A stretch of DNA of 64,000 nt from Escherichia phage ECO103 4-12-1. The notes below the pieces were generated by a model, which was not told where the DNA came from, did not search any database, and saw nothing but the letters and a program-made list of their open reading frames with translations. The position numbers and the translations under genes were made by a program. Positions within the stretch are counted from its first letter, which is position 1. Each line of letters opens with the position of its first letter. The stretch is from sequence record OR844650; one strand, written 5' to 3'. Shown here one piece after another: positions 11,286-12,589 of the stretch.

Positions 11286-11885
11286 ATGAGTCTTAATTCT
11301 TTTAACCGTAACTATGGTATGTCTAGCGTTGCTCGCGAATGGTGGGGTGGTAATAACGGTTTCGTTACCATCGTAATCGATCTACCAACTGATGTTGAAC
11401 TAGGTACTACCAAAGTTACTTCTGACGGTTCTGATGTTCAAGCTGAAGCGTATCAAACTGCTCTAAGTAATGCTCAATATAACCTATTCATGGTTACCCA
11501 ACTACTACAACAACGTGCAGTTCTAGTGACTACCTCTCTACTAGCTCTTGATTCAGAAGTTGTTATTCCTGCTGATTTCAAAAATGCTAATCCAAACGTA
11601 GTTGCGTTCGGCACTAGTGGTGCTGATGTAGCAGGTGGTGCTAATTCTGTTGCATTGACTTTCATCTGTGAACGTCAAGACGTATTTAACAAGCAAGAAG
11701 TTCGTCCTGGTTCAGCATGTCCTGCTCCAGTTGATCCAACTGTTGACCTAGCTAAGTCTATCGCTCAAGCTAAAGTTTTCCGTACCAAAACTTTCGTAAG
11801 TCAAGGTACTGATGGTGTTGGTGATGCAGGTGCATCTACTGCTGTAGCAATTAAAGTACGTGCTGCTCTTCCTGTTCAACTATAA
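11286..11885 (+). CDS. abundant late protein, paralogue A (likely virion component)
   Basis: AAGGAG SD; codon usage like the capsid gene; shares QQRAV...FNK blocks with the next gene. Confidence 0.6.
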   Translation: MSLNSFNRNYGMSSVAREWWGGNNGFVTIVIDLPTDVELGTTKVTSDGSDVQAEAYQTALSNAQYNLFMVTQLLQQRAVLVTTSLLALDSEVVIPADFKNANPNVVAFGTSGADVAGGANSVALTFICERQDVFNKQEVRPGSACPAPVDPTVDLAKSIAQAKVFRTKTFVSQGTDGVGDAGASTAVAIKVRAALPVQL

Positions 11886-11899
11886 TAGGAGGATAGATT

Positions 11900-12589
11900 A
11901 TGTCATATACTAATACTTCTTTTGAACGTATCAATGGTTATTCCTTTGAACGTATTCTAGGTTACTTTTGTGGCACTAACGCCCTAGCATCCATTGCTAT
12001 CAGTAAGCTAGGAAACGTAAACGTTCTAGTTACTGGTGCAGTTTCTTCTTATGCTGGTCTACAACGTTTTCTAAACACTGATATTCCAGAAGAAATTCTA
12101 GCATATCTAAATGATAAAGGTATCAAACGTATTGATGGAACTGCATTTGTTCTTGGCACACTAGAAGCTGATTACAATGCATCTTATGCAGCACAAACTA
12201 ACGTTAAACGTATTGTCGATGTTGTTCAACAACGTGCGGTTATCATCGCTACCTCTAACATCGCAGGTAATGGTCTTGAAGTATTTCCAGTTACTGGTTT
12301 CACCAACGCACCTGATGGTGTATTGAGTGCAGGTTCAGTTAGTATTGCTGATGCTTCTGTTGTTACCTTCCTAGTTGAACGTGCTGGTGTCTTTAACAAA
12401 GATCTTAAATCACCACAAGGTGTACCAAGTACTGAATCCGAAGAAGGCCGTCTACTAATTGATGATCTAACTGGTGTTCCACTACTTGCTAAAGATGGTG
12501 TTACCGAAGTTTACCTACGTTCCCAATCTGCTGATGCAGCAGGTGATTTCGGTGTTAAACTTTTCCAATACATCCCAGCATTGGTTTAA
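11900..12589 (+). CDS. abundant late protein, paralogue B (likely virion component)
   Basis: GGAGG SD; paralogous to 11286..11885. Confidence 0.6.
   Translation: MSYTNTSFERINGYSFERILGYFCGTNALASIAISKLGNVNVLVTGAVSSYAGLQRFLNTDIPEEILAYLNDKGIKRIDGTAFVLGTLEADYNASYAAQTNVKRIVDVVQQRAVIIATSNIAGNGLEVFPVTGFTNAPDGVLSAGSVSIADASVVTFLVERAGVFNKDLKSPQGVPSTESEEGRLLIDDLTGVPLLAKDGVTEVYLRSQSADAAGDFGVKLFQYIPALV

Follow-up and report, generated by a model that had tools for sequence, protein, structure and literature searches.

Two adjacent genes in the DNA of Escherichia phage ECO103 4-12-1 (sequence record OR844650; the 64,000-nucleotide stretch analysed is referred to as the window) raise the question of which part of the phage particle, if any, is built from their products. 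A first-pass annotation, made from the sequence alone, had described them as a tandem pair of highly expressed late proteins of 199 and 229 amino acids, and the corresponding open reading frames (ORFs) were found with these lengths. We refer to them as genes A and B.

11286-11885, + strand: gene A, 199 amino acids, 20.9 kDa, isoelectric point (pI) 4.8; PBECO4 gp504, phAPEC6 gp210, 121Q gp618, RaK2 ORF107w
11900-12589, + strand: gene B, 229 amino acids, 24.3 kDa, pI 4.6; PBECO4 gp505, phAPEC6 gp211, 121Q gp617, RaK2 ORF106w

Both genes are on the + strand, 14 nucleotides apart, amid neighbours on the - strand. As a whole, the locus is best explained as a two-gene late operon that encodes a duplicated, high-copy virion pair, most likely a capsid accessory, and we hold this explanation with somewhat more confidence than doubt.

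As judged from its sequence, the window belongs to Asteriusvirus and comes from a PBECO4/121Q/phAPEC6-like (RaK2-like) jumbo myovirus of E. coli. Over positions 11100-12700, identity is 100% to Escherichia phage PBECO4, 99.9% to IA-38 and 99.1-99.9% to about 18 other Asteriusvirus genomes, including 121Q, phAPEC6, SP27 and G17; over the whole window, the nearest relative is phage IA-38. Phages of this group have genomes of about 350 kb and are RaK2-like jumbo myoviruses; their capsid protein, portal, terminase and late sigma factor are of the T4 type.

Paralogy and age of the duplication

Pairwise BLASTP of A against B gave 35% identity over 89 amino acids (E=8e-9), and the sequence blocks QQRAV and VFNK, noted as common to the pair in the first-pass annotation, are indeed present in both proteins. 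Each protein matches phrog_9326 ('virion structural protein') over the entire profile (1-195 of 195), A at 1.3e-86 and B at 4.5e-86. In an alignment of 49 sequences, the A-type and B-type families can be aligned over their full length, and 12 columns are invariant (R8, G11, G22, N24, A63, N66, Q76, R77, V79, S84, E129 and R130 in A numbering); compared with A, B contains an extra helical insertion of about 32 amino acids. The BLASTP match, the end-to-end alignment and the phrog_9326 matches place the similarity of A and B far beyond chance, and the comparisons identify the two as true paralogues along their whole length.

The tandem arrangement of A followed by B, on the strand opposite to the neighbours and between RNaseH and a block encoding a virion protein and GroES, is kept in PBECO4, RaK2, phAPEC6, CBB, Vibrio phage 2.275.O and three metagenome loci (L007, L008 and L028). 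Because the A and B orthologue groups and their order are conserved as far as the Vibrio phage and the metagenomic contigs, the duplication is dated by these comparisons to before the whole RaK2-like lineage. The earlier proposal that the pair arose by duplication is therefore upheld, given full-length paralogy and the retention of both groups and their order in distant relatives. Since both copies are always retained in the same order, A and B are presumed to be non-redundant and probably have a joint function; they probably assemble together.

In Vibrio phage 2.275.O (MG592671.1; locus L006, 1135-3206), three family paralogues occur in tandem as genes 488, 487 and 486. The third copy was accepted as an A-like paralogue (hhalign probability 98%, E=1.8e-14). 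Two other genes were tested as further paralogues and rejected, namely the gene for the neighbouring 241-amino acid virion protein and a 267-amino acid upstream gene in L007.

When 1.84 billion representative proteins were searched exhaustively with a profile, 41 relatives in all were returned, none of them annotated; so far as these searches reach, phrog_9326 appears to be a small family restricted to RaK2-like jumbo phages. Distant homologues carry inserted domains of about 80 amino acids. Pfam gave no match for A, a sub-threshold GLMA_C match only for B, and no matches for ten distant family members. Searching the PDB by sequence, with the single proteins and with the family profile, yielded nothing significant, and tblastn with protein A gave no match in PA5oct and Atu_ph07.

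Expression signals of the predicted late operon

Genes A and B are predicted to form one late operon, with the following signals:

11169-11175, + strand: distal ATAAATA late-promoter-like core, 111 nucleotides upstream of the A start
11233-11239, + strand: proximal ATAAATA late-promoter-like core, 47 nucleotides upstream of the A start
11274-11279, + strand: Shine-Dalgarno sequence AAGGAG of gene A, 6 nucleotides before the ATG
11887-11892, + strand: Shine-Dalgarno sequence AGGAGG of gene B, 7 nucleotides before the ATG
12600-12631, both strands: bidirectional intrinsic terminator, a 14-bp hairpin with flanking A and T runs

The first-pass annotation had listed strong Shine-Dalgarno sequences, late-type promoter motifs, capsid-like codon usage and a strong bidirectional terminator, and all four were recovered. 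The promoter motifs are the two ATAAATA cores; the exact T4 late octamer TATAAATA is not found upstream of A and is not enriched in the window (7 seen vs 10 expected). The form found upstream of A, TGATAAATAA, is not enriched in the window either. ATAAATA itself occurs 19 times in the window, 14 of these copies being in intergenic DNA, which makes up 6.4% of the total, and nearly all the intergenic copies lie 7-65 nucleotides upstream of head or baseplate genes on the same strand. As TATAAATA and TGATAAATAA are not enriched and ATAAATA is concentrated, the shorter core is the informative motif. A scan for sigma-70 promoters gave hits no more frequent than in shuffled sequence.

The spacing of the proximal core is typical of the copies that precede the capsid, scaffold, portal-region and baseplate genes, and the copy at 11233 is likely to be the promoter of the operon. 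In the CBB paper, ATAAATA is likewise given as the late motif of CBB and GAP32, and the PBECO4 record has an annotation for a gp55-type late sigma factor in the section that matches the window. The pair thus appears to have what marks a T4-type late gene, a TATAAATA-like -10 element nearby, here as the ATAAATA core, together with a phage late sigma factor. Further copies of ATAAATA are located at, for example, 13919, 23865, 25074, 30979, 31036, 38591, 44630, 45589 and 49152, and the distribution of the motif can be used as a late-promoter map of the phage. The start of the RNaseH gene upstream (10081-11118, - strand) is ambiguous: the longest ORF begins at a TTG at 11118, an ATG is found at 11067, and the PBECO4 RefSeq record uses a GTG corresponding to 10977. 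Depending on which start is chosen, the divergent intergenic region upstream of A appears longer or shorter.

Codon adaptation was calculated relative to the capsid gene. Against a median of about 0.44, A scored 0.72 and B 0.68, which places them 1st and 4th among 50 other ORFs; the effective number of codons is about 30. A 105-amino acid ORF at 18295-18612 (- strand) also has very strong capsid-like codon bias (3rd of 50); its profile matches are to phrog_12534 and, at a weak level, to a PHROG labelled 'transcriptional regulator'.

The hairpin at 12600-12631 is stable on both strands, with folding energies of -19.7 kcal/mol (+) and -16.6 kcal/mol (-) and z values of -5.8 and -4.7; none of 200 shuffled sequences was as stable. 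It separates two convergent genes, B on the + strand and the gene for the 241-amino acid virion protein on the - strand, the stop codon of which is at 12637-12639. In the mechanism we propose, a gp55-type late promoter with the ATAAATA core would drive A and B, and the bidirectional terminator would end the operon. The promoter, the strong ribosome-binding sites and the capsid-like codons would together give a very high and roughly equimolar output of two acidic paralogues of 21 and 24 kDa.

Presence and abundance in virions

phAPEC6 gp210 has 100% identity to A, and gp211 agrees with B at 228 of 229 residues, so published virion proteomes bear directly on both proteins. In the phAPEC6 virion proteome, sequence coverage was 69.8% for gp210 and 69.9% for gp211, compared with 74.9% for the capsid protein, 68.0% for the sheath and 9.2% for the tail-tube homologue gp275c. 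The RaK2 paper (2013) identified gp106w and gp107w on a gel of virion proteins separated by sodium dodecyl sulfate-polyacrylamide gel electrophoresis (Figure 5 of that paper), with coverage of 55.4% and 53.5%, and described them as 'two distantly related proteins' that are abundant, uncleaved and at their predicted mass. In the CBB virion proteome, the B orthologue CBB_270 had the highest coverage of all (91.3%), and the A orthologue CBB_271 had 56.4%. On the basis of this published proteomics on identical or near-identical proteins, A and B are high-copy components of the virion.

The first-pass annotation had proposed abundant virion components, to be given up if the proteins were absent from virions, and the phAPEC6, RaK2 and CBB data agree with the proposal. 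Its description of the pair as being of unknown identity has to be corrected: the RefSeq label is 'virion structural protein', and the RaK2 paper described the pair in 2013. The finding is already known, abundance and paralogy having been published in 2013, 2017 and 2020, and the main value of the present analysis is annotation correction rather than discovery. Two GenBank names are also affected. The phAPEC6 record calls B 'hemagluttinin [sic] repeat-containing protein', and in CRJP21 the name given to A is 'recombination protein'; both names look like annotation errors because no Pfam or PHROG result supports either.

The same data bear on whether A and B are abundant late chaperones or scaffolds that co-purify with virions and are not structural. 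Their genes adjoin a phage GroES homologue, and a single-stranded DNA-binding protein, topoisomerase and thymidylate synthase also occur in the phAPEC6 virion list. Proteins of this contaminant type, however, have coverage of 7-17% in the same lists, and in weighing this alternative we took the coverage of A and B in virion preparations as equal to or above that of the capsid protein. Three independent virion preparations, each from a different genus, moreover contained A and B or their orthologues, and the RaK2 pair was also identified on the virion gel. Co-purification is accordingly considered very improbable.

Predicted structure and the tail-tube proposal

Confident AlphaFold2 models were obtained from the family alignments. 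The predicted local distance difference test score (pLDDT) was 85 for A and 79 for B, and the predicted template modelling score (pTM) was 0.81 and 0.77, respectively. Both models consist of a ferredoxin-like alpha/beta core together with a disordered N-terminal arm some 24 residues long, a helix of roughly 26 residues and a strand at the C-terminus. The invariant Arg and Gly would lie in the arm, and the invariant QQRAV..S and ER motifs in the core. Conservation covers the arm, the helix, the core strands and the C-terminal strand, and variation and insertions or deletions concentrate in the loops.

A Foldseek search of the models against the PDB gave nothing below E=0.03, and a search of BFVD returned family members plus one weak Atu_ph07 protein and nothing else. 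The first-pass annotation had recognised no T4 structural landmark in the pair and had named tail-tube, Hoc/Soc and Ig-like folds for comparison; no match to these was obtained with the predicted structures. According to the models, neither A nor B has a tube, Ig/Hoc, Soc, gpD or Dec fold.

This result is relevant to the proposal of the RaK2 authors (2013) that one of the two is the tail tube, and to the related possibility of a high-copy sheath-associated protein. With no tube gene recognisable in 2013, the RaK2 paper based the proposal of a tube on predicted beta content together with size and abundance, and its supplement lists both proteins as 'putative tail protein'. phAPEC6 tails also carry extra decorations and fibres without an assigned protein. 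However, a separate set of tube genes can now be recognised. phAPEC6 gp275c, gp274c and gp273c (locus L004, 38644-41307), directly downstream of the sheath gene gp277c, have tail-tube PHROG matches, to phrog_4542 (1e-85, 8e-80), phrog_13438 and, weakly, phrog_45. The gp275c orthologue is named 'tail tube protein' in PBECO4 RefSeq and other records and is kept in PA5oct and Atu_ph07. These three genes are hypothetical in the phAPEC6 GenBank record, and they represent another structural-gene duplication in these phages.

A and B show neither the beta-sandwich fold nor a profile match to tube proteins, and they are not the sole tube candidate next to the sheath; in the PBECO4 record (348 kb), the pair is at about 285 kb and the tail tube gene at about 19 kb. 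Their coverage of about 70% in phAPEC6 differs greatly from the 9.2% of the tube homologue gp275c, and the tail decorations, at about 12 per ring, are too few for their abundance. The tail-tube option, which the first-pass annotation had also offered, is disfavoured by the separate tube gene set, the fold and the gene position. The 2013 proposal of a tail tube, the one function put forward in print for this family, is probably wrong, and a tail role for A or B, whether in the tube or on the sheath, is unlikely.

Evidence on processing and the inner-body alternative

Internal head proteins of the T4 and phiKZ types are loaded via N-terminal sequences that are cleaved by the prohead protease, and the inner-body proteins of phiKZ also form paralogous families. 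The second point counts in favour of A and B being the inner body seen by bubblegram imaging in 121Q and phAPEC6 heads, or being ejected proteins. The inner body measures 91 x 18 nm and would need hundreds of copies of an abundant protein, and A and B are abundant and have no assigned place.

This reading is weakened by three observations concerning processing. The N-terminal 25 residues of both A and B lack an L/I-x-E motif, but such a site, LTE|S, is present in the capsid protein; the RaK2 orthologues migrate at their full predicted mass; and with 91.3% coverage of CBB_270, at most about 19 residues were unseen, which argues against a removed propeptide. In addition, A and B are acidic, without nucleic acid-binding features, and a hyper-acidic virion protein of 286 amino acids is a more conventional core candidate. 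This protein (25737-26597, - strand; pI 4.05, 31% Asp+Glu, phrog_15696, capsid-like codon bias) is encoded between the prohead protease and portal genes and could plausibly be a scaffold, core or inner-body component. An inner-body or ejected location of A and B is thus improbable, although less so than co-purification.

A proposed capsid accessory layer

Cryo-electron microscopy (cryo-EM) of 121Q and phAPEC6 at about 10 Å showed a T=28 shell formed by a capsid protein without large insertions. The maps contain an outer protein without an assignment, which has the same copy number as the capsid protein and is paired across local axes of two-fold symmetry, and a dimer-shaped fibre anchor at each hexamer centre. 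We consider that A and B may form a two-component, high-copy capsid accessory layer on the capsid exterior, a reading whose chances we put just short of even. The proteomic coverage and codon bias of A and B match those of the capsid protein. Both proteins are acidic (pI 4.6-4.8), and they diverge faster than the capsid protein (69% vs 80% identity to Klebsiella relatives). Their loops vary in sequence and length, distant homologues have the inserted domains of about 80 amino acids, and the pair is located between the terminase and capsid genes.

In such a layer, A and B would act as cement or decoration, or as the fibre anchor at the hexamer centres. The conserved arm and a polar face would attach to the T4-type shell of the capsid or to each other, with the variable loops facing outward, and the pair would account for the outer-layer densities without an assigned protein in the T=28 maps of 121Q and phAPEC6. 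In its most specific form, the proposal is that A and B make a heterodimeric block with an undescribed decoration fold, which forms the outer lattice and/or the hexamer-centre fibre anchors of T=28 capsids; we advance this form tentatively.

Several points weigh against placing A and B on the capsid. No experiment or map fixes their position in the particle, and according to the phAPEC6 authors, their own proteomics does not allow the outer capsid protein to be assigned. Sequence coverage is a rough proxy for copy number, and other small virion proteins with high coverage in phAPEC6 are equally good candidates, namely gp347 (14 kDa, 75%), gp306c (17 kDa, 66%) and gp253 (41 kDa, 66%). 121Q and phAPEC6 heads also contain the large inner body. 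The predicted fold of A and B is unlike that of any known decoration protein, and the case for a hetero-assembly of A with B comes from their co-retention and co-expression.

No atomic model of a capsid from Asteriusvirus or a RaK2-like phage turned up in literature searches, and the Sharanji and PA5oct papers held nothing further on the A and B genes. The high-resolution structure of phiKp24 was considered as a guide and rejected, since its capsid is of an unrelated type, with a large capsid protein, T=27 and no decoration proteins.

A and B rank with the best candidates to explain the outer capsid densities left open by the two cryo-EM studies of 121Q and phAPEC6. If they do form the accessory layer, they would represent a new class of two-component capsid cement specific to very large T4-type shells and would reveal how, at T=28, reinforcement is achieved in a T4-type shell that has no T4 insertion domain. 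They would also offer two high-copy, surface-exposed display sites on a jumbo phage that is a therapeutic candidate. Identification with the outer lattice would add a new fold and a two-component design to the capsid cement proteins, a result that phage structural biologists would find moderately interesting.

Neighbouring genes and mobile elements

The pair has RNaseH (- strand) upstream and the 241-amino acid virion protein and GroES (both - strand) downstream. Two nuclease genes are located further along the window:

20865-21191, - strand: small T5orf172/MUG113-type (GIY-YIG-like) nuclease gene, between a tail-fibre gene and the capsid region; labelled 'GIY-YIG nuclease family protein' in PBECO4
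21587-22510, - strand: endonuclease ORF of 307 amino acids, directly downstream of the major capsid gene (22644-23819, - strand)

The 307-amino acid ORF matches phrog_681 at 8e-63, has a treble-clef zinc finger and gives a weak T5orf172 match. It is present in IA-38, slurp01, G17 and Sharanji and is not in the PBECO4 reference or phAPEC6, and it looks like a mobile insertion of the homing-endonuclease type. By this pattern of presence and absence, the window is nearest to IA-38 and not to PBECO4 proper. Because of the extra gene, the coordinates of the window and PBECO4 are out of register beyond about 21.5 kb.

Comparison with known systems

The core predicted for A and B resembles the ferredoxin-like alpha/beta domains of the ACT, RRM, ribosomal protein S6 and EF-G domain IV-type families. 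This is a generic likeness of fold, at 4-15% identity, and these families have nothing like the N-terminal arm, the long helix and the C-terminal extension of A and B. A functional inference from the likeness is not justified.

With the tail tube proteins of myoviruses (T4 gp19 type; phrog_45, phrog_4542), A and B share size (about 20-25 kDa) and high abundance. They differ from them in predicted fold, profile matches and gene position, the A and B genes not being adjacent to the sheath gene.

The decoration proteins T4 Soc and Hoc, lambda gpD, P22/L Dec and T5 pb10 are closer in character. Like A and B, they are small and very abundant late virion proteins with flexible terminal arms, and they are more variable than the capsid protein. 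The likely counterpart of such proteins in these phages is the outer capsid density of the 121Q and phAPEC6 maps. A and B have no sequence similarity to Soc, Hoc, gpD, Dec or pb10, nor any predicted similarity of fold. They also form a system of two paralogues, whereas the known decoration systems use a single protein, and their binding to the capsid is presumed.

The closest systems are RaK2 gp107w/gp106w, phAPEC6 gp210/gp211, CBB_271/CBB_270 and GAP32 gp265/gp264, which belong to the same family as A and B and have the same gene order and flanking genes. Identity is 69% to the RaK2 proteins and 50-57% to those of CBB, and the late promoter of the ATAAATA type is a further feature in common with these systems. 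There is no material difference between the pair in the window and this RaK2-like family, and A and B are ordinary members of it.

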